Shown here: one piece after another, positions 1,473 to 30,543 of the stretch
Layout of the letters: each line of letters opens with the position of its first letter
Numbering within the stretch: the first letter of the stretch is position 1
Assembly (NCBI GenBank): GCA_016717595.1
Contig: JADKFE010000010.1
Span: 113,031 to 143,573 of the forward strand
Length of the DNA: 30,543 bases
Direction: 5' to 3'
From: Deltaproteobacteria bacterium
Lineage (GTDB): Bacteria; Myxococcota_A; UBA796; CAJQPC01
Made by a program: the position numbers and the translations under genes
Notes under the pieces: generated by a model
The model's database searches: none
What the model saw: the letters and a program-made list of their open reading frames with translations, nothing else
What the model was told of the DNA's origin: nothing

Positions 1473-1491
1473 AGGCTTGAATCCTTCAGGT

Positions 1492-5513: not shown

Positions 5514-5529
5514 GAGGGTGCTCCTTTGT

Positions 5530-5556
5530 GTTGAGTGATTGGTTGAGACGGTTGAG
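5530..5556 (-). repeat. Three direct CTCAAC repeats (GTTGAG on the + strand at 5530-5535, 5542-5547, 5551-5556) in the 54-nt gspF-gspG spacer, just upstream of the gspG SD
   Basis: Direct reading of 5521-5567: ...tgTTGAGtgattgGTTGAGacgGTTGAGggggag.... This is the only real intergenic gap in an otherwise overlapped operon. Confidence 0.5.
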
Positions 5557-5567
5557 GGGGAGTCCGC

Positions 5568-6806: not shown

Positions 6807-6809
6807 AGC

Positions 6810-8516: not shown

Positions 8517-11062
8517 GGCGCCTCCTCGGGGTTCGTGGGATCCGCGTCGGGATCCCCCTCGTCGCCCTCCACGGGATCCGCGCCCACGCCGCCCGCGCTG
8601 GGCGGGGCCTCGGGGGCGGCCTCCAAGGGCGTGTAGCTCACGTCGTCGATGTTGCTGCGGTACAGAGAGGGCTCGTCGATGATGTTCATCGAGTGACCCA
8701 GCAGCGTGTTCAGCGCCTCGACCTGCTCCAGCTCCGACTTGCCGTAGAAGCGGCGCAAGAACTCCTCACGCTGGGCCACCTTGATGCGGTACACCTCCTC
8801 CAGATCCGCCGGCTCGTCGATGACGTGGGGCGTGAGGAAGATGAGCAGGTTGGTCTTGCGGGTGGACTCGCGGCGGCCACGGAAGAGCGCGCCGACGAGG
8901 GGAAGATCACCCAGAAGGGGGATCTTCGTCTCCACCTGGGTGGACGTCTGGCCCATGAGGCCGCCGATCACGACGGTCTGGTTGTCACGAACCAACACAG
9001 TCGTCTCGGCGCTGCGTTTGGAGGTGATGAAGCCCGCCGTGGAGACGTCGAGGCCTTGGGCGTCCTCTTCGATCTCCGAGACCTCTTGGAAGACCTCCAG
9101 CGTCACATAGTCCGACTCGTTGATCTGCGGCGTCACCTTCAAGGTGATGGCGACGTCCTCACGCTGATACGTCACGAGCGGGTTGTTGTTGGAGTCACGA
9201 CCCGAGGCCACGGGGAACGGGATGTTACGACCGACGACGATCTTCGCCTCCTCGTTGTCCATGGTGAGGATGTTCGGCGTCGAGAGGATGTTCACCTGAG
9301 AGTTCGACTGTAGCGCGTTGAGCACGATGCCGAAGGCGGGGATGGTGAGCGCCGTGCCGCCGGAGAGGGGGTCACTGTTCACGGTGATGCTCTCACCGAA
9401 CACGCCCATCGCCAAGCCCGAGAGCAGGTCCGAGGAGAGGCCTAAGGACGAGGCGCCGAGCTGGGCTGAGCCCAACACGATGCCGCCCGCGTCGCCGGGC
9501 TTGCCGACGTGAACACCGGCGCCGACGCTGATCTCGTCCTCGCTCGCGAGCTCCATGATCACGACCTCTACAAACACCTGCTTGCGGCGGATGTCGAGCT
9601 GGTCGATGACGTGGCGGAGCGTGTCGTAGGCCTCAGGCGAGGCGATGATCACCAGCGAGTTTGTGTTCTCATCGGAGGTGACGCGGATGCTGTCGTCGAG
9701 GAGCGAGGCCGCGCCGCCTTCGCCCGCCGCTGGGCCCGCGTCCGCCGGAGCGCCGCCCGCGGGCTGGTTACGCCGCTGGGCCGCCGTCTGTGTGGTGCTG
9801 CGCTGCTGGGCGGCGCCGCCCGTGCGGTTCGCTTGGCTCAGGTTGGAGAGCACCTGGGCGACGTCTTCAGCCTTGGCGTGCTCCAGATACACCACATGAA
9901 TCTGGGAGCGTGAGGCGGGATCGACGTCGCGGTCAAGCTCGGCGATGAGCGCGAGCACCTTGGCCATCGCCTCTTCGTTCGCGAGCAAGATCAGGGAGTT
10001 GGTGCGCTCATCCGCCACCATCTTCTGGATGTAGCTGCCTTCACTGCCGACGTTTGAGGCGGTGGACGCGGCGGCGGGCGCGGCCTCTGTGGTGGCCCGG
10101 CGGCGGCGGTTGCCCGCGGCCTGGGGCGCCTGGGCGCTGGAGGCAGACGAGGTCGTCTCGGCGGAGCCGTAGATCTGCTCGATGAGGGTCTTGACCTCGG
10201 TGGCCGTGGCGTATTGCAGCGTCACGATCTTGAGCTCAGCCCGAGGCGCGGCCACATCAAGCTGGCTGATCACCTTCCACATGCGGCGAATGTTCACCGC
10301 GGCGTCGGTCACGATGAGCGTGTTGGTGGGCGCGTACGCCACGATCTTCGCCTTGGGACCGGCGAGGCCTTGGGCGACGGAGGAGATGTCGGAGACGCTG
10401 ATGTTGTCGAGCTGGAAGATCTGCGTGATGTACGCATTGGACGACGAGACGGTGGAGCCCTCGTACACCCGCACCGGGGACTGCGCGGCCTCGCCGTTGG
10501 GGATGACCTTGGTGCTGGTGCCCACCTCAACCGTCGTGTAGCCCGCCACCTCCAGGGCCGCGAGGAAGGCCTCATAGGCGCTGGCGATGGTGACGTCGGT
10601 GTGGGAGATGATCGTGATCTTGCCCTTCAGATCGTCCTGCAGGATGTAGTTCCGGCAGGTGATGCGGGCCATGTACTCGACCAGATCGCGGATCTCGACG
10701 TCGACAAAGTCCATGCGCACCTTGACCGTCGGGTCGATGCACGGGGGCTTGTTGACCACAGCGGTCTTGGGGGTGCCGGTGGCGTCGGTGGCGCCGGGCT
10801 CACCGGGGTTGCCGCCCAGCTCAGGCTGCGGGTCCTCGGGCGTGGCGGGGGCCGGCACGGGCAGCGGCGCTGGGCCACCCGGACGAGGCGCGCCGATCAC
10901 GGGGGCGGAGGGCCCGTCGATGCGCGGCGGGATTTGAGGGTCTTCGCCGTCCTGGGCATAGGACGGACGGCCCGCGAGAAGGCCAGCGCACAACAGCACG
11001 CAGCTCGGGATCAGCGCTCGCAACAGGTTCCGGCTCGCCACATCGGCTCCGCGTCCGCTCAA
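8513..11062 (-). CDS. gspD: T2SS outer-membrane secretin GspD, with a Pro-rich N-terminal extension and an acidic C-terminal tail
   Basis: Signal peptide, N-domains and a secretin domain (...VVIGGLMGQ...LLGDLPLVGALF...). 849 aa. The start is uncertain: either a TTG at 11062 overlapping the gspC stop (TTGA) or a GTG at 11041 that has a GGAG SD. Confidence 0.88.
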   Translation of the reverse strand: MSGRGADVASRNLLRALIPSCVLLCAGLLAGRPSYAQDGEDPQIPPRIDGPSAPVIGAPRPGGPAPLPVPAPATPEDPQPELGGNPGEPGATDATGTPKTAVVNKPPCIDPTVKVRMDFVDVEIRDLVEYMARITCRNYILQDDLKGKITIISHTDVTIASAYEAFLAALEVAGYTTVEVGTSTKVIPNGEAAQSPVRVYEGSTVSSSNAYITQIFQLDNISVSDISSVAQGLAGPKAKIVAYAPTNTLIVTDAAVNIRRMWKVISQLDVAAPRAELKIVTLQYATATEVKTLIEQIYGSAETTSSASSAQAPQAAGNRRRRATTEAAPAAASTASNVGSEGSYIQKMVADERTNSLILLANEEAMAKVLALIAELDRDVDPASRSQIHVVYLEHAKAEDVAQVLSNLSQANRTGGAAQQRSTTQTAAQRRNQPAGGAPADAGPAAGEGGAASLLDDSIRVTSDENTNSLVIIASPEAYDTLRHVIDQLDIRRKQVFVEVVIMELASEDEISVGAGVHVGKPGDAGGIVLGSAQLGASSLGLSSDLLSGLAMGVFGESITVNSDPLSGGTALTIPAFGIVLNALQSNSQVNILSTPNILTMDNEEAKIVVGRNIPFPVASGRDSNNNPLVTYQREDVAITLKVTPQINESDYVTLEVFQEVSEIEEDAQGLDVSTAGFITSKRSAETTVLVRDNQTVVIGGLMGQTSTQVETKIPLLGDLPLVGALFRGRRESTRKTNLLIFLTPHVIDEPADLEEVYRIKVAQREEFLRRFYGKSELEQVEALNTLLGHSMNIIDEPSLYRSNIDDVSYTPLEAAPEAPPSAGGVGADPVEGDEGDPDADPTNPEEAP

Positions 11063-12057
11063 CGGACCTCATACTCGAAGGTCTGCCGCTTGTTTCGCCG
11101 GGAGACCTCGAAGGTGAAGTTGGACTCGCTCTGAAGGCTCTGAAAGGCGGAGAGCGCCTGGTCGGGGCTGGTGAGACCCATCCCGTTGACCTGGTGCACG
11201 ATGTCGCCGTTCTTGATGCCCAGCTTGTCGAAGATGCTGCCACGACGGATCGCGCTTAAGCGATACCCGTCGACCTCACCGTCCGCTCCGCGATGCGGGA
11301 CGACCCGCACCTTAGAGGCCAAGGAGTCGATGTTCGCCATCGCGTCCTCAAGCAGCTTTCGCTCGACGATGAACTTGTTGTCGCCCTCTTTGGTGATGCC
11401 GCCGTCGGACTCACCCGCGGGCTCGGGCTCGGAGGCGGGCCGGGGTTTGGCCTCACCCTTCGCGCCCATCTCGATGTACTCAAGCTCCCCGGTGCCACGA
11501 TCGATCCAGACCTTCTTGGCCTCGATGCGTACGATCTTGCCCTCACCGCCCTCTAAGGTGTCGCCGACGCCATACCCTTGGCTGCGGCTCTCGCGGTCGT
11601 CTTTGGCGATGAGCGCTGAGGAGAACAGCTCGGGCTCGGCCACCATGGTGGCGATGAGCACATACCGAAGCTCGCTCGCGCCGACCTCGCCGCCGGCCAC
11701 GCCGTCCGCCGTGGCGCCGACCTTGGTGGAGTCAAAGATGGACCGCCGCACGAAGGGATCGACGAGGTCACTCTTGCTGAGCCGACGGGCGCTGGCGACG
11801 GGGTTGTCTTCAGGGGGCGGCGGCGCGTCGTCGGGGCCAGGCTCGGCGTTCTCAGGAGCGCCGCCCTCGGCCATCGGCTCGTCCCCGGCGACGACGGGGC
11901 TCGCGTCGATGGGCTCAGCGCCTTCAGGCAACGTGAACACCACACGCTTGAGCGTCTGGTTGAGGGTGGCCGCCGACAAGAACGACGTCAGCGCGATCAT
12001 GGCCGCGCCCGCTTGGACGCGCCGAGTCTGGAGCAGAGCTTTGAGGGCCACGATCAC
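11059..12057 (-). CDS. gspC: T2SS GspC: TM helix, Pro-rich linker, HR domain and PDZ domain
   Basis: N-terminal TM (AAMIALTSFLSAATL). An HR-domain-like segment (LRYVLIATMV...YGVGDTLEGGEGKIVRIEAKKVWIDRGTGELEYIEM). A C-terminal PDZ (GYRLSAIRRGSIFDKLGIKNGDIVHQVNGMGLTSPDQAL). GTG start with an AGGAGA SD. Confidence 0.75.
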   Translation of the reverse strand: MIVALKALLQTRRVQAGAAMIALTSFLSAATLNQTLKRVVFTLPEGAEPIDASPVVAGDEPMAEGGAPENAEPGPDDAPPPPEDNPVASARRLSKSDLVDPFVRRSIFDSTKVGATADGVAGGEVGASELRYVLIATMVAEPELFSSALIAKDDRESRSQGYGVGDTLEGGEGKIVRIEAKKVWIDRGTGELEYIEMGAKGEAKPRPASEPEPAGESDGGITKEGDNKFIVERKLLEDAMANIDSLASKVRVVPHRGADGEVDGYRLSAIRRGSIFDKLGIKNGDIVHQVNGMGLTSPDQALSAFQSLQSESNFTFEVSRRNKRQTFEYEVR

Positions 12058-12082
12058 GAAGACTCTCCTGACCTTTGCCGAT

Positions 12083-12097
12083 GCAAGATCCGGGCCA
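12083..12097 (-). promoter_or_regulatory. Candidate sigma54 (-24/-12) promoter for the gsp operon
   Basis: The minus strand reads TGGCCCGGATCTTGCA against the consensus TGGCACG-N4-TTGCW. GG and GC have the correct spacing and there is one mismatch. It sits ~26 nt upstream of the gspC GTG, and the predicted TSS falls just upstream of the SD. Confidence 0.4.
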
Positions 12098-12179
12098 GCT
12101 TTGGAGGTGCTCAGGCTGCCGTCGGGGCCTCGGGTTCGCGACAGCGTGTCATCAGCGACCGGGGGAGGGCCCAGGGCCG

Positions 12180-12192
12180 TGACAAGTTGTCA
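12180..12192. promoter_or_regulatory. Perfect palindrome TGACAAGTTGTCA, ~95 nt upstream of the sigma54-like element. A candidate enhancer-binding-protein or transcription-factor site.
   Basis: Read directly: gtGACAAGTTGTCAtcg. It lies in the 272-bp divergent gspC/nudix intergenic region. Confidence 0.4.
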
Positions 12193-12817: not shown

Positions 12818-13417
12818 GCCTCAGGCGCCTCTTCTAGGGGCACCTCTTCCGCTGGCGGCGGCTCCGCTGGCGGCGGCGTGCGTAGGGTCTCGATCAAGAA
12901 GAGCAGGCCCGGGTCGGGCAGCTCGACGTGCAGCGCCGTGAGGGCGAGGATCGCCTCATCCACACGATCCTCAGCGACGAGCGCCAAGGCCGCGTCGTGT
13001 TTGGCCTGGGCGGCGAGCAGGCCCACGGCGAGGCGCTGGCCGTCGGGGCCGTCTACGACGCTGAGGCGCTGGGGGCGGTCGATGTGGGGCAGATCCGCCA
13101 CCTCGTCGATGACGAAGCTCGCCGGGTTCACCTCGGGCTCGCTGCGCACGACCGTCACGGCGTTGCCTTCGATCGCCTCGACGCGGCAGGCGCTCGACGC
13201 CCGGATCACCCCGTAGCCCTTGAGGCTCAAGGCCATCATCCCGGGGCTCATGGCGGTCTGCTGATCCCAGGCGAGGAGCTCCTCGGCGACGACCTTGTCC
13301 GCGAGGATCTGCCGGGCCGGAGCGTCGATGGAGAGCCCCGGGAGCGCCTCACATACCGAGACGGCGAGGGGGGCGAGGCCAGGGCCGCAGCCCACGAGCA
13401 GGGCCAACAGGAGCATA
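12805..13417 (-). CDS. Hypothetical lipoprotein
   Basis: Starts at [11 protein letters not shown] (lipobox LVGC), the internal ATG of track ORF 12805..13749. High GC3. The 3' end overlaps the nudix 3' end by 13 bp, convergently. Confidence 0.55.
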
Positions 13418-13475
13418 CACACCTCAGGTCGTCTGGCCGTACCCCATATCCGGGCGGCGGCGCGCCGGGGATGGA

Positions 13476-13492
13476 CTGTTGGCCTGTTCAGT
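13476..13492 (+). promoter_or_regulatory. LexA/SOS-box-like site upstream of uvrB
   Basis: CTGTTGGCCTGTTCAGT matches the Myxococcus-type LexA consensus CTRHAMRYBYGTTCAGS at 14 of 17 positions, including the GTTCAG core. It is 31 nt upstream of the uvrB ATG. Confidence 0.35.
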
Positions 13493-13522
13493 TGGCCCGG
13501 CGCGAGATACAACCGCGGCTCT

Positions 13523-15658
13523 ATGCAGATCACGCTCAACGCGCCCTTCGCCCCCGCCGGGGACCAGCCCAAGGCCATCGCGACGCTCACCGAGGGCCTC
13601 GCCCGGGGGGAGAAGCACCAGGTCCTCCTGGGCATCACCGGCTCGGGCAAGACGATGACCATCGCGCATGTCATCGCGAACAGCCAGCGCCCAACGCTCG
13701 TGCTGGCCCACAACAAGACCCTCGCCGCCCAGCTCTTCGGCGAGCTCAAGAACCTCTTCCCCCAGAACTGCGTCGAGTACTTCGTCTCGTACTTCGACTA
13801 CTACCAGCCCGAGGCCTACGTCCCGTCCTCCGACACCTACATCGAGAAGGACAGCCTCATCAACGAGCGCATCGACAAGCTGCGCCACGCCGCCACCCGG
13901 GCGCTCTTGGAGCGCCGCGACGTGATCATCGTCGCGTCCGTGAGCTGCATCTACGGCCTTGGATCTCCCGAGGCGTACAGCAACATGCTGCTGCGCTTAG
14001 AGAAAGGCCAGCGGGTGAGCCGCGAGGCCATCCTGCGGAAGCTCGTCGAGATTCAGTACACCCGCAACGACATGGACTTCCACCGGGGCACCTTCCGCGC
14101 CCGGGGCGACGTCATCGAGATCTTCCCCGCCCACGAACAAGACCACGCCCTGCGGGTGGAGCTCTGGGGCGACGAGGTCGAGGCGATCTCGGTCATCGAC
14201 CCTCTGCGCGGCGTTCGTTTGGAGGCGCTGGACCTCTGCTGCATCTACCCGGCCTCGCACTACGTCACCCCCAAGTCGCAGACCGATCGGGCCGTGGCGT
14301 CGATTCGGGCCGAGCTTGTCGAGCGCCTCGCGACGCTGAACGCCGAGAACAAGCTCGTCGAGGCCCAACGTCTTGAGCAGCGTGTTCAGTACGACCTGGA
14401 GATGATCGAAGAGCTCGGCTACTGCTCGGGCATCGAGAACTACTCTCGGCACCTCACCGCGTCTGCCGAGGGCGCCCCGCCGCCAAACCTGCTGTCGTAC
14501 TTCCCAAAGGACTGGCTGCTCGTCGTGGACGAGTCCCACGTCAGCTTGCCCCAGGTCCAGGGCATGTACGTCGGCGACCGCAACCGCAAAGAGACCCTCG
14601 TGCGGTACGGCTTCCGCCTGCCGAGCGCCATGGACAACCGCCCCCTACGTTTTGACGAGTTTGAGGAGCGGGTGAACCAGGTCATCTACGTGAGCGCTAC
14701 GCCGGGCCCGTATGAGCTGGAGAAGGCCGGGGATCAGCTCGTGGAGCAGGTGATCCGCCCCACGGGCCTGCTCGACCCCTTGGTGGAGGTGCGCCCGGCG
14801 GTCACCCAGGTAGACGACCTCCTCGCCGAGCTTCGCCTCGTGATCAGCCAAGGCTGGCGCGCGCTGGTCACCACGCTCACCAAACGCCTGGCGCAGGAGC
14901 TCACCGACTACTTCCGCGAGCTGGGCCTGCGGGTGCGCTACTTACACAGCGACGTAGACACCTTAGAGCGCATGGAGATCCTGCGGGATCTGCGCCTGGG
15001 CGAGTTCGACGTGCTCGTGGGCATCAACCTCTTGCGAGAGGGCCTCGATCTCCCCGAGGTCGCCCTGGTGGCCATCCTCGACGCCGACAAAGAGGGCTAC
15101 CTGCGCAGCGAGCGCAGCCTCATCCAGACCATCGGCCGCGCCGCGCGAAACGTCGAGGGCCGCTGCATCCTCTACGCCGACCGGGTCACGGAGTCGATGC
15201 GGAAGGCGATGTACGAGACCGCCCGCCGCCGGACGATTCAAGAGGCGTACAACCTTGAGCACGGCATCACGCCCCGCACCATCGTGCGCGCCATCGAGAG
15301 CCACCTCGCCGACATGTTGGGCGGCACCACCGACACCGGCGCCGAGGCCAAGCTCGCCGCCGATGGCGCCTCCCGGGCCCCTGAAGACGCCAAGAGCCTG
15401 CCGCTCACGGCGATCCCCGAGACGCTCAAGCGCCTACGCGCCGAGATGAAGGCCGCCGCCGAGCGCCTCGACTTTGAGGAGGCCGCCCGCCTGCGCGACC
15501 GCTTGCGCGCCTTAGAGAGCTGGGCGATGGAGCTCTCGGGTGAGCTGCCCAGCGAAGAGCGCACCATCGGCGCCCGGGCCGCCGCCGCCTCCAAGGCCGA
15601 TCCTGGCCAAAAAGCCCCCCGCCGCACCTCCAAAGGCCGCCCTCCCCGGCATAAGTGA
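13523..15658 (+). CDS. uvrB: Excinuclease ABC subunit B
   Basis: [22 protein letters not shown]...GITGSGKT..., helicase motifs, and the C-terminal UvrB/UvrC interaction region. 711 aa from the ATG at 13523. Confidence 0.97.
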
Positions 15659-22314: not shown

Positions 22315-22953
22315 TCAGGGTGTAGGTTTTGTGCGCGGCTCGCTGCGCTCAAACCAGAGGTCAAGGAGCGGCCCGAGCATCGGCAACAAGGCCCAGCGCC
22401 AGTTGCGGCCGAGCTCACGGTGAATGAGCATCGAGGTGAGCCAGAACGCCAGAAAGTCGAAGCCCATGATGAACATGAAGGCTTCAGTTCGGGTGGCGTG
22501 CCACCACACGCCGGGCTCGGTGGCGACGAGGCCCCAGGCGCCCAGGCAGAGCGTCGCCAAGGTGAGCACGCTGACGATGCGGCGCCCGGCGAGGAGCTTG
22601 AGCGGCCCCGTCACCGGCTGGCGTTGGTTAAACGCCGAGCGCAAGAAGAAGCCCGGCAAGAGCGCGAAGGCCCCGAGCACGTTGGCGAGGAGCACAAACG
22701 GCCACAGCGGCAGGGGCCGAGCGTTCAAGAGCGGCGCCGCGCGCGCCCCGATCACCCACGGCCAGATGCCCATGAGCATAAAATGCACGATGACGAGGGG
22801 GTCCTCTCCTTCCCAATCCCCGGTGAGCAGGCGAATCACCCACTCTGACTGATCCGGGCGCGCATCGGGCGAGCCGATGAACGACACGGCCATCAGGGCG
22901 ATCCACACGATCAGATAGCCCAGGCGGTGAACCGGCGGCTCAGGGCTCTCCAC
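22315..22953 (-). CDS. Hypothetical polytopic membrane protein
   Basis: 212 aa with several hydrophobic helices and a WPW motif. Overlaps the upstream gene by 14 nt. Confidence 0.5.
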   Translation of the reverse strand: MESPEPPVHRLGYLIVWIALMAVSFIGSPDARPDQSEWVIRLLTGDWEGEDPLVIVHFMLMGIWPWVIGARAAPLLNARPLPLWPFVLLANVLGAFALLPGFFLRSAFNQRQPVTGPLKLLAGRRIVSVLTLATLCLGAWGLVATEPGVWWHATRTEAFMFIMGFDFLAFWLTSMLIHRELGRNWRWALLPMLGPLLDLWFERSEPRTKPTP

Positions 22954-24019
22954 GGGGGGCCTCCTCGGCGGGGGAGCTGGACGGCGAGGCGGGGACGCCG
23001 CCTTTGATTCTCACCCAGGCCGCGAGGAACTTCTGGTGCAGCCAGTCACGGATGTGGTGGCGCCGACGCCACAAAACCACGGTGCCGATGCCCTTGATCG
23101 TCCACCAGGCGATCATCCACTTGCCGGCGTTCAGCAAGAAGTCCGCCGAGGGGATCCAGGCGAAGGGCAGCTCCGTGGCCTCCGCGGGCGCGGCGACGGG
23201 CTCCTCGGTGGCGATGACCAAGGCGTCGTCTCCACAGCGTAGAACGACCTCGACGGGCCCGGCGCGCCAGCTCTGGTCAGGCGCCCCCGGGAGGCTCGCG
23301 ACGAGCTCGACGCGGTGCGGGCCGGGGCTGAGGCTCACGGGCGCGTGGTGGTCAGGGGTGCAAGCGGCGTAGATCAGGTCTTGGCCGCGGCCAACCCAGC
23401 TCCCGCCAAACGGCGCGGGCTCTGGCAGCGAGGCCGACGGGCGCCAGAGCTGGCCGTCTACCCAGGTCTCGAACAGGAAGGCGTCGCGCCAGGGCTCGGC
23501 GGAGGGGTGAAGGGTGAGGCTCACCTTGGCCGAGGCGGCGTCGAGGGCCTCGGAGCAGGCGCCAGAGTCCGTGGCGACGACCACGGGGCCGCGCTCGTGG
23601 GGATCGACGGAGAGCGCGCCCAACGCGACGGGCGGCGGCGCGGGGGCGGTGAGGTTCAGGTGCAGCGCGCGGGGCCCCCGCTGATCCCCGGCGCCGCCCA
23701 AGATGACCCGGCTTCCTGGGCGCAGCGCGCCCTCTTGAGGCCTCACCAAGAGCACGCCGGGGTGGGTGGCGCTGGCCTCCTCGACGACGGGCACCGCCGC
23801 GCCGCCCTCGACGGTGAGCCCCCGCGGCTCATCAAAGGGCGCGCAGCCCGAGCGGAGGAGCGCGATGGCGCTGAGGTTGGCCGGGACCGAGGCGCCGTCC
23901 CCCGGCACCGAGGCCGCGGGGTGGCAAGGATGGGGGGAGCACGCCCAGGCGGCGGCGGGCGCCAGGCCAGAGAGGCCGACCACCGCAGCGGACAGGAGCA
24001 GGGCGCGCTGAAACACCAT
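22940..24019 (-). CDS. Secreted protein with a cleavable signal peptide and a C-terminal TM anchor
   Basis: The internal ATG at 24019 gives MVFQRALLLSAAVVGLSGLAPAAAWA|CSP.... The C-terminal TM is WMIAWWTIKGIGTVVLW followed by RRRHH. Strong GC3 bias. The N-terminal 70 aa of the track ORF is 5' UTR. Confidence 0.55.
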   Translation of the reverse strand: MVFQRALLLSAAVVGLSGLAPAAAWACSPHPCHPAASVPGDGASVPANLSAIALLRSGCAPFDEPRGLTVEGGAAVPVVEEASATHPGVLLVRPQEGALRPGSRVILGGAGDQRGPRALHLNLTAPAPPPVALGALSVDPHERGPVVVATDSGACSEALDAASAKVSLTLHPSAEPWRDAFLFETWVDGQLWRPSASLPEPAPFGGSWVGRGQDLIYAACTPDHHAPVSLSPGPHRVELVASLPGAPDQSWRAGPVEVVLRCGDDALVIATEEPVAAPAEATELPFAWIPSADFLLNAGKWMIAWWTIKGIGTVVLWRRRHHIRDWLHQKFLAAWVRIKGGVPASPSSSPAEEAPRGEP

Positions 24020-24091
24020 CACCTCGGCGCATGACGTGGACACCAGGACGTAGCGCGGCAAGCGGGGGGGTGCATCTTGGCGGATGGTTGA

Positions 24092-24107
24092 TTGGTTGAC
24101 CAACCAA
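24092..24107. promoter_or_regulatory. Perfect palindrome TTGGTTGACCAACCAA, preceded by a direct TGGTTGA repeat, 73-88 nt upstream of the 24019 gene
   Basis: Read directly: ggaTGGTTGAtTGGTTGACCAACCAAaca. Sits in the low-GC intergenic region. Confidence 0.45.
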
Positions 24108-24252
24108 ACACGCGATAGCCCTCCCTTCCGGAGTGGGGCCGGGTTGGCGCCTGCGGCGCCAGTGTTCAGCGCGGCGGTCGGCTCGACATCATGAGCCCGA
24201 CTTCGCAACCGCTCGCACCTTATAGGCATCGATATCTCCTAAAGCCGTAAAT

Positions 24253-24288
24253 CGCTGACTAATACCCTGAGTTCCAGTGGTATCAGCG
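24253..24288 (-). terminator. Imperfect hairpin: CGCTGA/TCAGCG and TACC/GGTA stems, 12-nt loop. The minus-strand RNA continues UUUACGGCUUU. A possible terminator for the upstream minus-strand operon.
   Basis: Self-complementarity read from the sequence. It lies ~330 nt downstream of the 24616 gene end, inside the low-GC spacer. Confidence 0.2.
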
Positions 24289-24615
24289 ACGCCTACGACA
24301 ACTCTTCCGCCTTTGCGGCGATCGACACTCCTCAACGCACGTCGGGAGACTCGCTTTGATGGCGCGCCCCCTCAAATCCAATCTCCACAGATGAGCGTCT
24401 GGGTATGCGCAGCACCATGTCCTGGCTCAGGCAAGGCCCCTGAACGTCACCCCTAAACACGAGGTGATTCTTACACCTCACCCGACAGTCGGTAGCCGAA
24501 GGTCAATCTTAGGAATGCGTCTTGTTTTGTGCCTTTGTAGCCAATAGGCTGAATTCGAGCGTTAGTCTTTGGGTCTGGCCCGATCTGCCCACAATCCTGT
24601 TGGTCATTGTTGTCG

Positions 24616-25071
24616 TCATCGCGAAAGCTTGGAGTCGTCGCGCTCACCGCTGCAGTCATTGACCACACCATCGCAGACCTCTCTCGCACCAGGAAAACGA
24701 CTACGATCCGCATCGTTGCAGTCCCCCTCCTTTGGGGCCGTTCTCTTCGGGCAGACGCTCCCCGCGTACCGCTCGGGGCGAGCGCCCTTCCTCCCAAAAC
24801 CATCCCCGTCGTCGTCGGGATAACAGTCAACCCCCGCCGCAATGGCGCCCTTGGGGGGCTCACCCTCCGCGACGGCGTCATTCGCCGCCCCTTCCCCAGC
24901 CGTTGGTGGCTTTGGCGCCGCTGGAGGCTTCGCGGCCTGCTCGCCGAGGGCTGGCGCCCCCGGGCCGCCCAACGTCTCGTCTTGGGGCGTCGACCGAGCC
25001 CACACGATCCACAACGCGAGCAGCGCGGTGACGAGCCCCACCAATCCGCCGATGATCAGCGGTCTCTTCAT
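24616..25071 (-). CDS. Small membrane-anchored protein with a Pro-rich linker and a MopE-like Cys-rich putative metal-binding motif
   Basis: N-terminal TM MKRPLIIGGLVGLVTALLALWIVWA. The motif is VDCYPDDDGDGFG...GDCNDADRSRFPGAREVCDGVVNDCSGERDD (DCDD...PGAxExCDGxDNDC repeat). Its ATG overlaps the upstream stop (ATGA). Confidence 0.6.
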   Translation of the reverse strand: MKRPLIIGGLVGLVTALLALWIVWARSTPQDETLGGPGAPALGEQAAKPPAAPKPPTAGEGAANDAVAEGEPPKGAIAAGVDCYPDDDGDGFGRKGARPERYAGSVCPKRTAPKEGDCNDADRSRFPGAREVCDGVVNDCSGERDDSKLSR

Positions 25072-25844
25072 CTCGTCGTTCGGAAGGGGCTTAGGGGGCC
25101 CTCACTGCGCTGGCGGCGCGCGCGGCTGCTCAAGGGCAAGGGAGACAGCGCGGGAGGCGGCGAGGGAGACGCTGCGGTCAGGCTCGCGAGCTGGGCGGCG
25201 GTGGGGACCGGGATGTTCAGTCGTGTCTCCGCCTCGCTCAAGGCGCTCGGCAGCGGAGCGGCCGCGGGGAGAGGCGCAGCGCTCGGGCGCGCCGCAACCG
25301 TCGAGGGCCGGGTCGGCGGCGAGATCACCGTCTTGTCGTCGTCCTCCTCGTCGTCCTCGTCGAGCTCTGGGTGAAGCGCGACGTGCTGGAGCTGGGCCGT
25401 GCGGAACCGGTCCGAAGGCGCCATGAGCCCCGCCGCAGGGGCGGGCTCGGCGGCGGGGGACGGGGGCGCTCGCCGGACTCGGCACGAAGCTCTTCCTCTT
25501 CTCCGGCGCGGCTCAAGCTCAAGCTCTTCCGTAGGCGGACGAAAGACGGCGTCGGGGAAGTCGCTGGTCGCCCTCGACAGGCTCGGCCAACCCCGGCCGA
25601 TGTCCAACCCGGCGGCGTCGATCTGCGAGCGGCCCTCTCTCAGGCAGCTCGGTCTGTTGCGCCTGCGGCGGGCGAGGCTCAGCCGCCATCCGCTCGCCCT
25701 CCAGACCGGCCCTTCTCGACGGTCAGAGCGGTCGAGGAGGCCTCTTCTGCCGCGCCAGTCTCCGCGGACCCTGCTCCTTGAGGGCTCTGCCTCCCTCTCG
25801 TCTGAGTCACGAAGCGCGGCCGCTCCTCCCCGGGATGCGAACAT
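25068..25844 (-). CDS. Hypothetical Arg/Pro/Ser-rich, low-complexity protein. Frame uncertain.
   Basis: It is the only ORF spanning the gap. Both ends overlap neighbouring start/stop codons in this frame (TGATG at the 5' end, ATGA at the 3' end). The composition looks like a disordered protein or an off-frame artefact. Confidence 0.3.
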   Translation of the reverse strand: MFASRGGAAALRDSDEREAEPSRSRVRGDWRGRRGLLDRSDRREGPVWRASGWRLSLARRRRNRPSCLREGRSQIDAAGLDIGRGWPSLSRATSDFPDAVFRPPTEELELEPRRRRGRASCRVRRAPPSPAAEPAPAAGLMAPSDRFRTAQLQHVALHPELDEDDEEDDDKTVISPPTRPSTVAARPSAAPLPAAAPLPSALSEAETRLNIPVPTAAQLASLTAASPSPPPALSPLPLSSRARRQRSEGPLSPFRTTR

Positions 25845-26512
25845 CAGGCCGGCGGGGCAGGGGGCTCCGGCTCCAACGGCGGGCGCCCCGAGGGCGGAGG
25901 ATCACCCTCAGCGGGCTCCTCGGCGATGCGCCCTGTAGACAGCGCCTCCCGCTCCTCTACAGTCGGCCTATCGAGCACCCCCGGCGCGCCCGCGCCCACC
26001 AGGAGGCTCTTCAGCGCGTCGAGCTGCGCGGCACGCTCCGGTCCAGGCGGCAGGCGGGACGACCAGAGCTCGCGGATCAGCGTGGCGGCGATGGGCTCGG
26101 GGGGCGTCGTCGTGGCGCCGATGAACATGCGGCGCGCGAGGGGATCGCCCTCCCAGTGCTCCAGCGGCGCCAGAAGCTCGTACAAGACCGGCAACAAGAG
26201 GCCGGGATCACCTCCGTACGCGGCGCGAAAGATCCCCCGCGCCGCCGCGCGGTCGAGGGTGCCCAAGGGGTAGATGAGGCTGTGCTGCCACACCGCCCGG
26301 CGCCCATCAAACTCCAAAAACTTGCGTCCGAACAGGGTGATCACGTCACCCACCCCCGCGAGCGACTCCTCATAGAGCGCCCACGGGTCGGGCTTGGTCT
26401 GCTGCAGACGAAGCCCCACCTGCTCCACGGGCCCGACGCCTCGCCCCCGAAGCTCGGTGACGAAACGATAGTCCTGCCTCCAGCGGAGATTTAGGAAGTG
26501 GGCGGGCTTCAC
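25844..26512 (-). CDS. Hypothetical protein, 222 aa, translationally coupled to the GTPase gene
   Basis: The GTG start overlaps the GTPase stop (GTGA). Good GC3. No recognisable motif. Confidence 0.5.
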   Translation of the reverse strand: MKPAHFLNLRWRQDYRFVTELRGRGVGPVEQVGLRLQQTKPDPWALYEESLAGVGDVITLFGRKFLEFDGRRAVWQHSLIYPLGTLDRAAARGIFRAAYGGDPGLLLPVLYELLAPLEHWEGDPLARRMFIGATTTPPEPIAATLIRELWSSRLPPGPERAAQLDALKSLLVGAGAPGVLDRPTVEEREALSTGRIAEEPAEGDPPPSGRPPLEPEPPAPPA

Positions 26513-27609
26513 CGGTCGGCGCTCCCGTATACCTCAGTGCTCCCCGTGAACAGATGATCAAGCTCTAGTCCCGCCACGATCGCGCCCAGGCACTCGTGAA
26601 CCCCGGCGCCTGAGCGCGCAGACCCGAACACATACCAGGAGTCTCGTCGGGGGTTGAAGCTCTTCTGCAGCAGGAGATCGACGTGCTGGCGTAGCTCCAA
26701 CATCGCCGGATCCGCCTCGGGGCCCTGCGCTGGCACGTTGGGGAGCTTGTCTACCTTGTTAAAGAACACCACGATCGAGGAGACGACCTCCCGGGCGACG
26801 TCTCGCTCGTAGGTGGCGCGCAGCCGCGCCTCGCTGACATAATCCGCGTTCTTGGCCACCCCCGCGCAGACATCCCAGATCATCAGCGCCACCGCGCGGC
26901 CTTTGTTCTCTTTGTGATGGCGATCGATCATGTTCCCGATCTGCTCGGGGGAGCCGCCCGCGATGTCCACAAAGTCAACGGCGTGCAGCACACGCAGGCC
27001 GTTCTCGTCTCCCCAGCACAGCGGCACCGGGCTCGTCCGATATTGCGCCATGGTGGACTGTATCGAATCTAAATCTTTCGGCGTCGCGGTGGGGTTGGTG
27101 AGGCGCTCCATCAGCGTCGTCTTCCCGCCCTTGGACATCCCGTCCATAAAGACGGTGTGGATACGAAGCGGCACGGCCTGCTTCGCGAGCTCCATGTTGA
27201 TGCGGTTGATGTGCGCGAGCTCTCGCTTGAGATCGGTGTTCTGCGCGTCGTAATCTCGATTGGCCGTGCGGTACTCGCTGAGCTGGCCCTCGACCTGGGC
27301 GGAGCGGGACTTGAGGTGGGTGAGCTGGGCCCGAAGATCGGTGACCAGCTTCTCTTGTTCAGCAAAGCTGGCCAACATCCCCTCGCGCTCCCGCTGATGT
27401 CCCTCCATGCGTGAGATCAGCTCGCGCCTCTGCTGAGTCGAGTCATCCACTTGCGCAAGAAGCTCAGCGGTGTGCTGCTGCGCCTCCTGGAGCTGGGCCA
27501 AGATGGCGTTATGCTCTTGTTCGTGATCCCGAAGCTGAAACCCCAACCAAACCACGACGACGACCAAGACAACAACCGAGACGAGCAGAGCGACGACGAG
27601 AACTTCCAT
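26509..27609 (-). CDS. Membrane-anchored coiled-coil Ras-like small GTPase
   Basis: N-terminal TM MEVLVVALLVSVVVLVVVVVWLGF. About 140 aa of heptad-like coiled coil. G1 GMSKGGKTT, G3 DIAGG, G4 NKVD, G5 SAR. ATG at 27609 with a GAAGGTG SD; the track begins at an upstream GTG, 27618. GC3 is visibly lower than in the flanking genes. Confidence 0.65.
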   Translation of the reverse strand: MEVLVVALLVSVVVLVVVVVWLGFQLRDHEQEHNAILAQLQEAQQHTAELLAQVDDSTQQRRELISRMEGHQREREGMLASFAEQEKLVTDLRAQLTHLKSRSAQVEGQLSEYRTANRDYDAQNTDLKRELAHINRINMELAKQAVPLRIHTVFMDGMSKGGKTTLMERLTNPTATPKDLDSIQSTMAQYRTSPVPLCWGDENGLRVLHAVDFVDIAGGSPEQIGNMIDRHHKENKGRAVALMIWDVCAGVAKNADYVSEARLRATYERDVAREVVSSIVVFFNKVDKLPNVPAQGPEADPAMLELRQHVDLLLQKSFNPRRDSWYVFGSARSGAGVHECLGAIVAGLELDHLFTGSTEVYGSADR

Positions 27610-27640
27610 CACTGACACCTTCGAGACCTAGTTTCAAGCG

Positions 27641-27672
27641 CCGATGATCGCTCAGCGCCAGCGCATCATCGG
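27641..27672. promoter_or_regulatory. Inverted repeat CCGATGAT-N16-ATCATCGG in the divergent GTPase-operon/kinase promoter region
   Basis: Read directly: gCCGATGATcgctcagcgccagcgcATCATCGGatc. Confidence 0.4.
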
Positions 27673-27680
27673 ATCTGCGT

Positions 27681-27686
27681 TATAAT
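27681..27686 (+). promoter_or_regulatory. Consensus TATAAT -10 box, 54 nt upstream of the kinase ATG. No good -35; the inverted repeat occupies that position.
   Basis: gcgtTATAATagag, in a locally AT-rich stretch of a 70% GC genome. Confidence 0.35.
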
Positions 27687-27739
27687 AGAGTCGATAAGGA
27701 AGCACAACCACCCCGCTGTTTTTACCAGGTAGTGAAGCA

Positions 27740-29272
27740 ATGCTCGCGCCTTCGCAGATCCGTCCCGGCCAAGTCTTTGGTAAGTACACCCTCGTCAAGC
27801 CCCTCGGCGAAGGAGCCTTCGGCGGCGTGTGGCTCGCAGAGCGCGTCACCAACCACCAGCAGCACCAGCTCAACCGCCCCGTCGCCTTGAAGCTGCGCCA
27901 TCGGCACGAGTCGCAGACGGACATGCACGACGCCAACCTGTCCTTTCTGCGCGATTGGTACGTCGGGAACCTCATCCAGCACCCCAACATCGTCGCGATT
28001 CAAGACGTGGTGACCGAGGGCCCCGACATCGCCATCGTCATGGAGTGGGTCGACGGGTACACCTTTGGCGACATCTTCCGCCGCCTGACGTCTCTGGACG
28101 CGTTCTTGCCGTTGTCCGCGGTGCTTGAGGCCGGGATCGGCGTCTGCGCGGGGCTGCACGCCTTACACTCCGTTCGGCGCCCCGACGGCACCCCCTACAA
28201 CATCGTGCATCGCGACATCAAGCCCCAAAACCTGATGATCGACCTTCACGGCGTGGTGCGGGTGCTTGACCTCGGCATCGCCAAGAGCGAGGAGCTCCCC
28301 GGAGAGCGCACCGCGCACGGCATCGCCAAAGGCACCATCGAGTACATGGCGCCTGAGCAATACCTGAGCGACAACCTCTCTCCCGCCACCGACCTCTTCC
28401 CCTTGGGGGTGGTGCTGTTTGAGCTGGCGACAAAAGAGCGGCTCTTTCGGCCTGAAGCGGACGACTCCCGGCTCTTTCGGCGCAAGCGCAGCGGCCACGC
28501 GGCGAGCCGAGTCAACGCGCATGAGGCTCGCCTCGGCCCCTTCGCGCCTGTGCTGCTGGACTGCCTGGCCATCGAGCCTGAGGATCGCCCGCAGAGCGCT
28601 GAGGAGCTCGGTCATACGCTGCAGGGGCTCTTGGACGGCGCGCCCCGCGGGCCGGGGCTGCACGACCTGATGTCGGCGTTTCGAGGGGAGATCCCGCCCC
28701 GAATGGCCCAGAGCCCGGAGTGGGCGCCGTTGGCGCTGGCCCTCGATCGCCCCCGCCGCCCAACCCCCGTGGTTCATCTGCCGCGAAAAAACATCGCGCT
28801 GCTGCTGCCTGGCCTCGACATGCCAGAGACGATCGTCGAGGCGCTCTCGCCCATTGATGAAGACGGTGATGTTGCCATTGAGCATAGCGTCGTTGTTCCC
28901 GCGACGCTCCCAACCCCAGAGGCGAACCTCACGCCCCTCCCCCTCCCCGACCCGCCCACACGCTCGCTGCCGTTCTCGCCGACGCCCAGCCCGATCCCGC
29001 TCTCGGGCCAGACCACGAGGATCAGGACGACGACGCCGTCTCCGACCCCACCACCGACGCCGACCCCACCCCGCCCAGAGCGCGCCCGGTCACGCCGACG
29101 CCACCGCCCACGCCGGTCGTGGCGCCGCCAGCCCCCCCGCCGCTCATCCGATCCGCGTTTGTGCCGCCCAAGGCGCCGACGCCGCCCAGCCCTCCGCCCC
29201 GCGCCCCGATCGCGGCGCCGCCGCTGGCGCCCGCGTTCATGTCAACCAGAACGCCCTCCCCCGCGCTCGTGA
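27740..29272 (+). CDS. Hanks-type Ser/Thr protein kinase. The N-terminal kinase domain runs to about residue 300. The C-terminal ~170 aa in this frame are Pro-rich, then Arg-rich, and are probably off-frame.
   Basis: Gly-loop LGEGAFGGV, VALKL, HRDIKPQN, DLG and APE motifs. After ~29060 the frame turns Arg-rich (RSRRRHRPRRSWRRQ...), whereas frame 1 reads as a natural Pro/Ala linker. Confidence 0.8.
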   Translation: MLAPSQIRPGQVFGKYTLVKPLGEGAFGGVWLAERVTNHQQHQLNRPVALKLRHRHESQTDMHDANLSFLRDWYVGNLIQHPNIVAIQDVVTEGPDIAIVMEWVDGYTFGDIFRRLTSLDAFLPLSAVLEAGIGVCAGLHALHSVRRPDGTPYNIVHRDIKPQNLMIDLHGVVRVLDLGIAKSEELPGERTAHGIAKGTIEYMAPEQYLSDNLSPATDLFPLGVVLFELATKERLFRPEADDSRLFRRKRSGHAASRVNAHEARLGPFAPVLLDCLAIEPEDRPQSAEELGHTLQGLLDGAPRGPGLHDLMSAFRGEIPPRMAQSPEWAPLALALDRPRRPTPVVHLPRKNIALLLPGLDMPETIVEALSPIDEDGDVAIEHSVVVPATLPTPEANLTPLPLPDPPTRSLPFSPTPSPIPLSGQTTRIRTTTPSPTPPPTPTPPRPERARSRRRHRPRRSWRRQPPRRSSDPRLCRPRRRRRPALRPAPRSRRRRWRPRSCQPERPPPRS

Positions 29273-29988
29273 GCGCCCCCAGCGGCGCCGGTGAGCGGCC
29301 TTCACCCGCCGTCGAGGACGAAGACGACGGGCGTCCTACGGTCTTGATCGTCGTGGCCGCGATGATGGCGGGGGTCATGCTGGCGGCGGGAATGTTGGTG
29401 GTGAGCCAGATCATGTTCAAAGACCCCAAGCCCATCCCCGAGGAGGTCCTGGTCAACAAGCCCGCCGAGGACCTGCCGCCCGAGGACGTGCCGGCCGAGG
29501 TCGCCCCTCCCCCCGAGGCCGACCCGTGTGATGGCGTCAGCGACGAGGACGGCGACGGCTATCTCCCTTGTGCCCCCGAGACCGATGCGGCGCTGGCCCG
29601 CGTCAGCCTAGGCGAGCTCAAGGCGAACGACTGCGACGACAAAGATCCCAAGGTGTACCCCGCCGCCAAAGGGGACGGGCGCGGCGTCGACAACAGCTGC
29701 GACGGGAAGATCGAAGGGAAGGAGCGGCCCGTGACCGAACCCCCGCCGCCGCAGGAGACCTGTTTTCAAGACCTGGACGGAGACGGCTACGGAAACGTGC
29801 TGAAGCCCCTGCGCGGGGAGGCCTGCCGTGGAAAAAACGTGAGCAAAAACAGCGAGGACTGCCTCGACACCAACGCCCGCTGGTACCCAGGCGCGGCGGA
29901 GCCGCCCGGATCGCCTGACATGAACTGCGACGGGAAACCGACGCCCGCGGTCGAGAATCCAAGCTCCCTGTCGCGCCGCAGGTGCTGA
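29119..29988 (+). CDS. Pro/Ala-rich linker, TM helix and an extracytoplasmic MopE-like Cys-rich domain (three motif copies). Either a separate gene or the frameshifted C-terminal half of the kinase.
   Basis: Frame 1 is open from 28888 and has good GC3. TM TVLIVVAAMMAGVMLAAGMLVVSQIMF. Motifs ANDCDDKDPKVYPAAKGDGRGVDNSCDGK, CFQDLDGDGYG and EDCLDTNARWYPGAAEPPGSPDMNCDGK. In-frame candidate starts at GTG 29119 or ATG 29239. Confidence 0.55.
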   Translation: MAPPAPPPLIRSAFVPPKAPTPPSPPPRAPIAAPPLAPAFMSTRTPSPALVSAPSGAGERPSPAVEDEDDGRPTVLIVVAAMMAGVMLAAGMLVVSQIMFKDPKPIPEEVLVNKPAEDLPPEDVPAEVAPPPEADPCDGVSDEDGDGYLPCAPETDAALARVSLGELKANDCDDKDPKVYPAAKGDGRGVDNSCDGKIEGKERPVTEPPPPQETCFQDLDGDGYGNVLKPLRGEACRGKNVSKNSEDCLDTNARWYPGAAEPPGSPDMNCDGKPTPAVENPSSLSRRRC

Positions 29989-30254
29989 GGGCCACGGGCT
30001 CGCTCAGAGGCAAGAAGCTCACCGTGAACGCTGCGCTCGACCCAAACGGCGTCCGGTGCAAGGCGCTCTATGTTCATGTCAGCGGCTCTCCCAGCTTCAT
30101 CACCGGCGAGACCACCATCCAACAGATGAGCGGCGGCCCCACCGATTGGCAGGCGAGCGTGCCCGTAGACCAGAAAGAGTTGTACTTTAAGCTCATATGC
30201 AACGACAATGGCCCTTTGCGCATCGGCGCCAAGTACTACGGGGTCTCGCAATGA
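29982..30254 (+). CDS. Beta-rich domain ORF in frame 0. A possible further C-terminal extension of the receptor, or a small separate gene.
   Basis: Frame 0 is open from 29919 and reads ...KKLTVNAALDPNGVRCKALYVHVSGSPSFITGETTIQQMSGGPTDWQASVPVDQKELYFKLICNDNGPLRIGAKYYGVSQ. It overlaps the end of the MopE-like ORF by 7 nt. Confidence 0.4.
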   Translation: MLRATGSLRGKKLTVNAALDPNGVRCKALYVHVSGSPSFITGETTIQQMSGGPTDWQASVPVDQKELYFKLICNDNGPLRIGAKYYGVSQ

Positions 30255-30309
30255 GCGGCGATGTCTGTTATGCTGCGGCCATGAACCTTGCCGCGGATAG
30301 GGTTGCCCT

Positions 30310-30543
30310 GTGAAGCTGCTCCAGCTCGTGAGAACCTTCGCCCGAACCTCCCTTCTTTTGGGGCTCGTCGGCGCCTTCAACGTCGGCGATGTCTACGCCC
30401 AGACCAAGAACCGCGCCGCCGAAGAGGCGAATCAACAGCGGGATCTGGCGGAGCGGTACTTCGGCGAAGGGGATCTCGACCGGGCGGAGCTCGCCGCGAT
30501 GCGCGCCGTAGAGCTCGACAAATCGAGCCTCACCGAGCGCGCC
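30310..30543 (+). CDS. Secreted TPR-like protein. N-terminal fragment that continues past the window end.
   Basis: The GTG at 30310 gives MKLLQLVRTFARTSLLLGLVGAFNVGDVYAQ (signal peptide) then ...AERYFGEGDLDRAELAAMRAVELD (TPR-like). Open to the window end. Absent from the track because it is truncated. Confidence 0.4.
   Translation, partial: MKLLQLVRTFARTSLLLGLVGAFNVGDVYAQTKNRAAEEANQQRDLAERYFGEGDLDRAELAAMRAVELDKSSLTERA

Follow-up and report, generated by a model that had tools for sequence, protein, structure and literature searches.

We analyzed a stretch of 30,543 nucleotides (hereafter, the window; contig JADKFE010000010.1 of assembly GCA_016717595.1, positions 113,031 to 143,573) from a Deltaproteobacteria bacterium of the Myxococcota_A, in which a gene for a membrane-anchored small GTPase is followed on the minus strand by three overlapping open reading frames (ORFs) and adjoined on the opposite strand by a divergent receptor kinase gene. 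Whereas a preliminary description of this DNA had regarded the four minus-strand ORFs as a four-gene operon, comparison with related loci indicated at the sequence level that the locus is a two-gene module consisting of the GTPase and one receptor-like partner protein. Both its GTPase family and its partner domain are unannotated, and in kind it belongs with the bacterial small-GTPase modules that have a membrane partner. The reading that we favor, and consider reasonably probable, is that the two proteins constitute a membrane-embedded GTPase switch, to which a receptor kinase has been added in Myxococcota.

Gene structure of the locus

The ORF listing of the window contained all four minus-strand ORFs where they had previously been placed, namely the GTPase gene (26509..27609, 366 aa) and ORFs of 222 aa (25844-26512), 258 aa (25068-25844), and 151 aa (24616-25071). 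The GTPase gene starts with the ATG at 27609 after a Shine-Dalgarno-like GAAGGTG site, with the GTG at 27618 as an alternative start, and was called at 366 aa in all relatives. The ORF coordinates account for the junction strings GTGA, TGATG, and ATGA, and the GC content at third codon positions (GC3) peaks in the own frame of each ORF, indicating that each stretch is coding in that frame.

In all eight relatives with an intact locus (L002, L003, L006, L007, L013, L015, L016, and L017), the region downstream of the GTPase gene was shown to encode a single partner ORF of 565-807 aa, that is, 801 and 806 aa in L002 and L003, 807 aa in L006 and L007, 795 aa in L015, 596 aa in L013, and 565 aa in both L016 and L017. 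This evidence spans relatives from 47% identity in the G domain to 89% identity over the full length. The GTPases of L002, L003, and L004 were 89% identical to that of the window (partner 801-806 aa, the L004 copy being ended by the contig end), and those of L006 and L007 were 77% identical. In close relatives, the partner gene overlaps the GTPase gene by 4 nt and encodes a C-terminal MopE motif. The L015 locus, on a JGI contig, was found by a metagenome scan using the N-terminal domain of the partner (N-domain), the first metagenome scan having found none, and a genome scan with a narrowed family alignment yielded three loci.

A tblastn comparison placed the three ORFs of the window collinearly on a single partner protein (residues 1-190, 312-453, and 487-641), each in another frame, and weaker collinear matches to the C-terminal domain of the partner ran past the stop codon of the 151-aa ORF in further frames. 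A frameshift-aware alignment of the intact L015 partner with window positions 24180-26512 ran through 751 codons (72% identity) without meeting an in-frame stop codon and called for 15 frame changes; seven of these lie at 25638-25858, six at 24442-24639, and single ones at ~25127 and ~24191. The same alignment revealed no frame change in the GTPase gene, which served as a control, and two in the kinase gene (~29078 and ~29953). The partner gene (24191..26512, minus strand) is thus represented in the window by three ORFs and an unreadable 3' remnant, with about 15 frame changes in total.

The three ORFs downstream of the GTPase gene were accordingly recognized as collinear pieces of one orthologous gene, and the operon of four genes had to be abandoned. 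Coupled translation and fixed stoichiometry, which had been deduced from the overlaps, were not sustained either, because the frame shifts themselves give rise to the 222/258 and 258/151 overlaps. A +2 frame offset puts an NTG of the new frame before any TGA of the old frame, and this triplet is a start codon with A, G, or T (but not C) as N, so that the internal overlaps are uninformative on coupling; the GTGA overlap between the GTPase and partner genes was the only junction kept in relatives. As for the individual products, the 258-aa "Arg-rich unknown" exists as an ORF but not as a separate protein, being in part an acidic disordered tether read in the wrong frame, and the 151-aa MopE ORF covers the transmembrane (TM) helix of the same partner together with the initial part of its ectodomain. 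Exact look-ups of the 222-, 258-, and 151-aa products of the window matched no record.

Architecture and family of the GTPase

The GTPase comprises, from its N-terminus, a signal-anchor TM helix (aa 4-26; 27532..27600), a helical, probably coiled-coil stalk of ~125 aa (aa 27-144; 27178..27531), and a G domain (aa 148-366; 26512..27168), all on the minus strand. In good agreement with the N-terminal TM helix and long helical segment described previously, AlphaFold2 (AF2) modeled residues 2-144 as a single helix with a mean predicted local distance difference test (pLDDT) value of 89, and the stalk gave weak matches to the SMC, Rad50, and FPP coiled-coil families. Of the 52 aligned family members, nearly all have a hydrophobic segment N-terminal to the G domain, and from the positive residues that follow the TM helix in the family members, the C-terminus of the GTPase should be cytoplasmic.

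The assignment as a GTPase was borne out by the presence, in order, of the G1 (GMSKGGKTT, 27115-27141), G3 (DIAGG, 26953-26967), G4 (NKVD, 26749-26760), and G5 (GSAR, 26614-26625) motifs on the minus strand, of which G1, G3, and G4 were invariant and G5 near-invariant among the 52 members. The invariant columns were G157, G162, and K163 in G1, D215 and G218 in G3, and N284 and D287 in G4, and the near-invariant ones were K285, G329-S330 in G5, and E219. The catalytic Gln after DxxG was absent, the position being occupied by Gly in the window clade and by a near-invariant Glu in the other members; namely, the G3 motif reads DxxGE in the family, DIAGG in the window clade, and DIAGS in the nearest outgroup (P0004). 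The protein is a TRAFAC GTPase with the Ras-superfamily-like (Arf/Rag/Rab-like) fold of small GTPases, and its closest PDB sequence matches were G-alpha s and q.

As had been surmised, this architecture lies outside the MglA/SofG type, and no curated cut-off of Pfam or NCBIfam was reached. The window GTPase scored below the gathering thresholds of the Ras, Arf, Roc, Gtr1-RagA, and G-alpha families of Pfam, with sub-threshold matches including GTP_EFTU (25.3 versus 26.5 bits) and Roc (15.9 versus 27 bits, E = 0.016). In the Pfam scan of the 52 members, matches were obtained to GTP_EFTU (41 members), RsgA (11), Gtr1_RagA (7), Roc (6), Arf (5), G-alpha (5), DO-GTPase1 (2), and DO-GTPase2 (1), those to Gtr1_RagA, Roc, Arf, G-alpha, and the DO-GTPases being all weak. 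Judged from these profiles, the family shows no specific Pfam allegiance.

When 1.84 billion representatives were searched exhaustively by phmmer using the G domain, only 55 clusters (50% identity) were retrieved at E ≤ 1e-3. Nearly all members are 210-400 aa long, and they share the order of a short N-terminus, a hydrophobic helix, a helical segment of variable length, and a C-terminal G domain. A single-sequence search of a 5.8-billion-protein collection gave three close GTPase clusters, and two profile searches of the protein collection, in which coiled-coil words predominated, contributed no more than P0046 and P0058. All the family members looked up originated from metagenome-assembled genomes (MAGs) or metagenomes, under source names such as "hypothetical protein", "GTPase domain-containing protein", or, mistakenly, "CHASE3 domain sensor protein". 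No description of this GTPase family was found in the literature, and from the comparisons made here both the family and the partner domain look unannotated and their architecture previously undescribed. The ratio of nonsynonymous to synonymous substitution rates (dN/dS) of the GTPase was 0.08-0.17, indicative of purifying selection.

Domain architecture of the partner protein

Alignment across clades and hidden Markov models (HMMs) delimited a conserved cytoplasmic N-domain (aa 1-135; 26108..26512), which corresponds to the first part of the 222-aa ORF. It is followed by a disordered, acidic, Pro/Ala-rich tether (25060..26107) that takes up the end of the 222-aa ORF and the whole 258-aa ORF, by the TM helix LIIGGLVGLVTALLALWIV (25003..25059), whose preceding K/R residues put the N-terminus in the cytoplasm, and by extracytoplasmic MopE-type Cys motifs (24634..24825). 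The latter include CYPDDDGDG (24799-24825) and a PF11617 match (24634-24723) at aa 117-146 of the 151-aa ORF. Beyond them, a remnant of the Cys-containing C-terminal ectodomain (24191..24633) is collinear with L015 and L002 when about seven frame changes are allowed; all these segments are on the minus strand. From the charged flanks of the TM helices, the G domain and the N-domain would both be cytoplasmic, with the Cys-rich domains outside.

In the alignment of the N-domain across contexts, H77, F95, and Y99 were invariant and R71 and G100 near-invariant, and the window N-domain has HFLNLRWRQDYRFVTE at the site where the others have NYFNLRWxxGYxYVSD. Its dN/dS of 0.10-0.24 indicated purifying selection. 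The 222-aa piece, for which a regulatory role had been proposed, proved to carry the conserved N-domain of the obligate neighbor of the GTPase and is hence a genuine candidate for a regulator. The N-domain matched nothing in Pfam, NCBIfam, PADLOC, or PDB sequences, and the 222- and 258-aa ORFs had no Pfam, NCBIfam, or PADLOC match. The beta-beta-beta-beta-alpha-alpha order of a low-confidence model gives a faint hint that the N-domain might be longin- or roadblock-like.

The ten complete partners share the order of N-domain, low-complexity tether, one TM helix, and variable C-terminal region, the partner of L019 being ended by the contig end and not counted among them. In the Myxococcota-type loci, the C-terminus bears a MopE-type motif and a Cys-containing domain, and PF11617 was also detected in the partners of L002, L013, L016, and L017. 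Elsewhere, the C-terminal region consists of an SH3_3 domain (L012), a rhodanese domain (L014), or a Ser/Pro-rich segment (L018), or is almost absent (L011).

Pairing of GTPase and partner across phyla

The homologous N-domain of ~135 aa was encoded directly after the GTPase in all 11 contexts retrieved (L002/3/4, L006/7, L015, L013, L016, L017, L018, L019, L011, L012, and L014). These include a Competibacteraceae MAG of the Gammaproteobacteria (L011) and an Acidobacteriota MAG (L012), as well as L016, which was binned as Myxococcota_A UBA796. The spacing of the two genes ranged from a 4-nt overlap to 35 nt. The co-occurrence was demonstrated in both search directions, since N-domain HMMs from single clades picked out only the post-GTPase gene among 295 ORF segments (E values of 6e-15 to 2e-3), and those of the reverse direction likewise found only this gene among 823 ORF segments (7e-11 to 7e-3). 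Moreover, a model from which L018 and L019 had been left out still detected their N-domains (E = 2e-11 and 9e-20, respectively). Conservation of the block, which had been put forward as a check on the operon, was therefore confirmed for the GTPase and its N-domain neighbor but not for the four ORFs as separate genes.

Receptor kinase and intergenic region

The divergent gene for a Hanks-type Ser/Thr kinase (27740..30254, plus strand) reported previously is real; it is not, however, a single intact ORF in the window but is split into three frames. It forms one gene of 849-882 aa in close relatives and of 843 aa in L015. One frameshift (~29068-29078) sits in a Thr-Pro repeat of the ACACCA type and represents a 16-nt deficit relative to L015, the other (~29953) is a 1-nt deficit, and the last 90 aa are encoded by a separate ORF (29982-30254). 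The kinase domain (27785-28615; PF00069, 115.8 bits, aa 16-292 of the ORF starting at 27740) is followed by a Pro/Thr-rich linker, a TM helix (29338-29403), ectodomain MopE-type motifs (29761-29934), and a C-terminal domain. The divergent kinase, with its TM helix, was present in all the Myxococcota-type loci (L002/L004, L005-L007, L013, L015, L016, and L017), including those with as little as 37% identity in the G domain, and PF11617 was present wherever the ectodomain lies on the contig. L014 and L019 offered too little upstream sequence to judge the kinase link.

The kinase ectodomain, which in the window is read in a second plus-strand frame downstream of the kinase domain, and the 151-aa ORF were confirmed to share the MopE motif, with PF11617 scores of 36.5 and 35.5 bits, respectively, against a cut-off of 27. 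Within L015, the partner and kinase ectodomains have in common the pattern CxDxDxDG...DCxDxxxxxxPGA (E = 5e-5), and no similarity was detectable in the remainder of the two L015 ectodomains. The "metal sensing" suggested earlier, which derives solely from the name of PF11617 (Cu-binding_MopE, "putative metal-binding motif"), was not supported.

Across five relatives, which differ from the window by 0.04 to 0.9 at synonymous sites, the divergent regulatory region between the GTPase and kinase genes (27610..27739, 130 nt) showed 91% conservation, and it was more conserved than the synonymous sites of the flanking genes. The inverted repeat noticed previously in this region is a perfect 8-nt one (27641-27648 / 27665-27672), and CCGATGAT-N16-ATCATCGG (27641-27672) was conserved. 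A promoter-like TTGTGC-N17-TATAAC site, with hexamers read from the alignment and TATAAC resembling a -10 element, faces the GTPase gene. A formal promoter scan gave no match in 27610-27739, and Rfam gave none in 24000-30543.

Neighboring genes

Two same-strand genes that overlap each other follow the partner gene (22315-24229, minus strand), neither having a Pfam match. The first, an ORF of 429 aa, has an N-terminus like that of lipoproteins and a TM helix at its C-terminus; the second encodes a 212-aa multi-TM protein. Both were conserved only in close relatives (L001-L007 and L015) and not in L013, L016, or L017. In L013, two FHA-domain genes and an IcmF/TssM-like gene come after the partner gene (3657-7864), and in L017 a Tox-PAAR-like gene adjoins the kinase gene (1659-2627); links to phospho-Thr signaling or type VI secretion, each seen once, can be taken as hints. 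Farther away, the window carries a complete-looking type II secretion cluster followed by UvrB, all intact (3-12189 on the minus strand and 13265-15658 on the plus strand). The cluster encodes a PilM/GspL-like protein, GspK, a GspJ-like protein, another pseudopilin, GspF, GspE, the GspD secretin, and GspC with a PDZ domain.

Proposed mechanism

The tightly linked gene pair encodes two bitopic membrane proteins. In the proposed switch, the short TM anchor and long helical stalk of the GTPase hold the G domain in the cytoplasm at a distance from the membrane, and the stalk would form a parallel coiled-coil dimer that pairs the G domains. The N-domain of the partner would bind the G domain and set or read its nucleotide state as a GTPase-activating protein (GAP), a guanine nucleotide exchange factor (GEF), or an effector. 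The absence of the Ras catalytic Gln makes catalytic residues supplied in trans, or dimer-dependent hydrolysis, plausible, and R71 and H77 of the N-domain are candidates for such trans-acting residues. The partner ectodomain might couple the GTPase to an envelope or extracellular cue, either as input or as anchoring, and the kinase of the Myxococcota-type loci may respond to the same cue or phosphorylate the module; the two FHA-domain genes behind the L013 partner would fit phospho-Thr signaling. The length of the stalk (25-127 aa) and that of the tether (39-371 aa) co-varied (Spearman 0.81, p = 0.005, n = 10), as expected if the two cytoplasmic domains have to reach each other at corresponding distances from the membrane, although this correlation ignores phylogeny and three of its ten points are close relatives.

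A wider formulation is that the module is an undescribed cross-phylum transmembrane G-protein system, in which a receptor-like N-domain controls a stalk-dimerized GTPase at a matched distance from the membrane and to which the Myxococcota add a kinase with the same ectodomain. We offer it tentatively, as a possibility; if true, it would amount to a prokaryotic counterpart of receptor-to-G-protein coupling.

Several points besides the phylogenetic caveat speak against the proposed switch. The neighborhoods were examined for 11 of the 55 clusters, and the interaction of GTPase and partner is a prediction from gene linkage and sequence. Searches of Pfam and PDB sequences revealed no GAP, GEF, roadblock, or longin signature in the partner sequences, and the AF2 model of the N-domain, built from a 2-sequence alignment, had a pLDDT of only 38. 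The Gly of the window clade and the Ser of P0004 replace the family Glu, so the GTPase chemistry may differ or be impaired, and intrinsic hydrolysis may be altered or lost in the DIAGG/DIAGS clade. Outside the Myxococcota-type loci, no kinase was found upstream in L011, L012, or L018. Furthermore, should the frameshifts be genuine, this organism has only pseudogenes of the partner and the kinase.

Alternative explanations

The most serious alternative takes the frameshifts at face value, supposing that the module is real in the relatives and that partner and kinase are truly decaying pseudogenes here, so that the GTPase would be left without its partner, of which a soluble N-domain fragment of 222 aa would persist. 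Several indels of the window are 4-11 nt long and not of the homopolymer type, the dN/dS of the ectodomains reached 0.44-0.95, and the number of frame changes (about 15 in the partner and 2 in the kinase) would likewise be in keeping with decay. So would the intactness of ~20 kb of other window genes (the type II secretion cluster, UvrB, syntenic enolase, TPR, desaturase, and DctP), as it implies unevenly spread errors. A further point in its favor is the hypervariability of the tether between near-identical strains: L009, whose gap-free match to the window over 2255 nt had 98.9% identity, diverged abruptly at 25900 (L009 2255-2297), at the start of the partner tether; the L009 contig ends 13 nt before the stop codon of the 222-aa ORF. 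On the other side, no in-frame nonsense codons appeared once the frames were followed, identity stayed at 72-85%, and the indels were tightly clustered, while the GTPase, the kinase domain, the TM helix and N-domain of the partner, and the other window genes just mentioned all read as intact. The ectodomains also evolve fast between intact copies.

A like indel cluster was, moreover, observed in the unrelated MAG L001 and not in the other contigs of the same strain group. This sister-species NCBI MAG (GCA_016706815.1) has five 1-2-nt indels in 170 nt of the partner tether (L001 8342-8511) and a fragmented kinase gene, whereas L002-L004, with an identical GTPase, are intact, which points to a recurrent assembly problem at this locus. 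We consequently regard residual assembly errors as the likely origin of the clustered small indels of the window, and true decay as rather unlikely. The 3' remnant (24191..24633) has a low GC content (0.54); decay was weighed as the cause of the low GC at 24230-24616 but discarded, since L015 and L006, with intact orthologues, are equally low there.

A second alternative is a conflict or defense pair related to the DO-GTPase/GAP1 dyads (Kaur, Burroughs, Iyer and Aravind, 2020; PMC7159879), in which the variable region senses an invader and the GTPase sets the response threshold. As in those dyads, the GTPase is of the TRAFAC class and sometimes has an N-terminal TM helix, and its obligate partner is encoded directly downstream, often with a C-terminal TM helix and extracellular domains. 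The DxxGE of the family G3 resembles the Walker-B Glu by which DO-GTPases are defined, 3 of the 52 members matched the DO-GTPase1/2 models weakly, the tether is hypervariable between strains of ~99% nucleotide identity, and PAAR-toxin and TssM-like genes neighbor the module in two loci. The window clade, however, is devoid of the Glu, and the DO models were not among the best 25 of the 28 Pfam matches of the window GTPase. Neither the window pieces nor the ten partners matched GAP1-N, -M, or -C in Pfam, and no paralogous GTPase pair, zinc ribbon, GASH/FNIII third component, EAD, or effector domain was found at any locus examined. PADLOC returned only coiled-coil noise for the GTPase and no match for the other ORFs, and a scan of viral contigs detected no member of the family. 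A role in defense accordingly seems improbable.

The module could also be a structural or spatial factor of the envelope, in which the stalked GTPase serves as a membrane-anchored ruler or scaffold and the partner anchors it to the cell wall, by analogy with SR-beta and the SRX domain of SR-alpha or with divisome coiled-coil proteins. The co-variation of stalk and tether lengths would suit such a ruler, and the SH3_3 ectodomain of L012 is a typical wall-binding module. There was also a weak TM-plus-coiled-coil likeness to FtsL, DivIC, and ZapG, but these matches were generic and all sub-cut-off. Likewise, no conserved link to division, secretion, or signal recognition particle genes was seen in the loci examined, and the adjoining receptor kinase suggests signaling instead, so that we give an envelope role little credence. 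Lastly, the four-gene, translationally coupled operon of separate GTPase, 222-, 258-, and 151-aa polypeptides in fixed stoichiometry can be dismissed as very improbable, for although the ORFs, their overlaps, and their GC3 peaks exist and the ATG of the 151-aa ORF lies just before the TM helix, the three pieces are fused in eight intact relatives, homology to orthologues changes frame repeatedly within the 258-aa ORF and is still seen beyond the stop codon of the 151-aa ORF, an acidic linker read out of frame accounts for part of the Arg-rich stretch, and NTGA overlaps are expected from a +2 offset.

Comparison with known systems

Among described systems, the gene neighborhoods of the Group 1 Rup GTPases (Wuichet and Sogaard-Andersen, 2015; PMC4316618) bear a resemblance to the present module. 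Both feature a bacterial Ras-superfamily GTPase without the G3 glutamine, tied to a coiled-coil element and a protein that combines an uncharacterized domain, a TM helix, and an extracytoplasmic domain, and in both a signaling output gene adjoins. The architecture of the partner is analogous to that of the Rup-associated protein with an "Unc" domain, a TM helix, and OmpA, as compared by description only. Rup proteins are, in contrast, single-domain and closely Ras/Rab-like, whereas the present family falls below the Ras, Arf, and Roc cut-offs and has the coiled coil and the TM anchor fused to the GTPase. The ectodomains are of MopE-type, SH3, or rhodanese kind here and OmpA in Rup, and the output is a Ser/Thr kinase here, in the Myxococcota-type loci only, and a GGDEF/EAL protein or histidine kinase in Rup.

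Like the actinobacterial conservon (CvnA-D) and MglA/MglB, the module ties a bacterial small GTPase to a membrane sensor; unlike them, it gave no Robl_LC7 match in any partner or window ORF. Sequence identity to eukaryotic Arf/Arl, Rag/Gtr, Rab, G-alpha, and SR-beta was 13-20%, and, in distinction from the eukaryotic GTPases, the present protein is bacterial and has no G-alpha helical-domain insert, catalytic Gln, or lipid-modification motif.

Significance

To our knowledge, bacterial small GTPases with known partners are few, comprising MglA/MglB, the conservon, and the predicted Rup and DO-GTPase systems, and the coupling of bacterial small GTPases to the membrane is, as far as we know, mostly obscure. 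The locus also holds a lesson for annotation, in that chains of ORFs with overlapping start and stop codons in high-GC MAG sequence can be frameshift artifacts. The module described here is a compact two-gene system in which the GTPase and its candidate regulator are both membrane-anchored, and the sensing domain of the partner is modular across lineages. The co-variation of stalk and tether offers a testable geometric prediction, and in one clade the module is joined by a receptor kinase whose ectodomain matches. The module would thereby be a tractable entry to receptor-coupled G-protein logic in bacteria and to the diversification of Arf/Rag/G-alpha-like GTPases.

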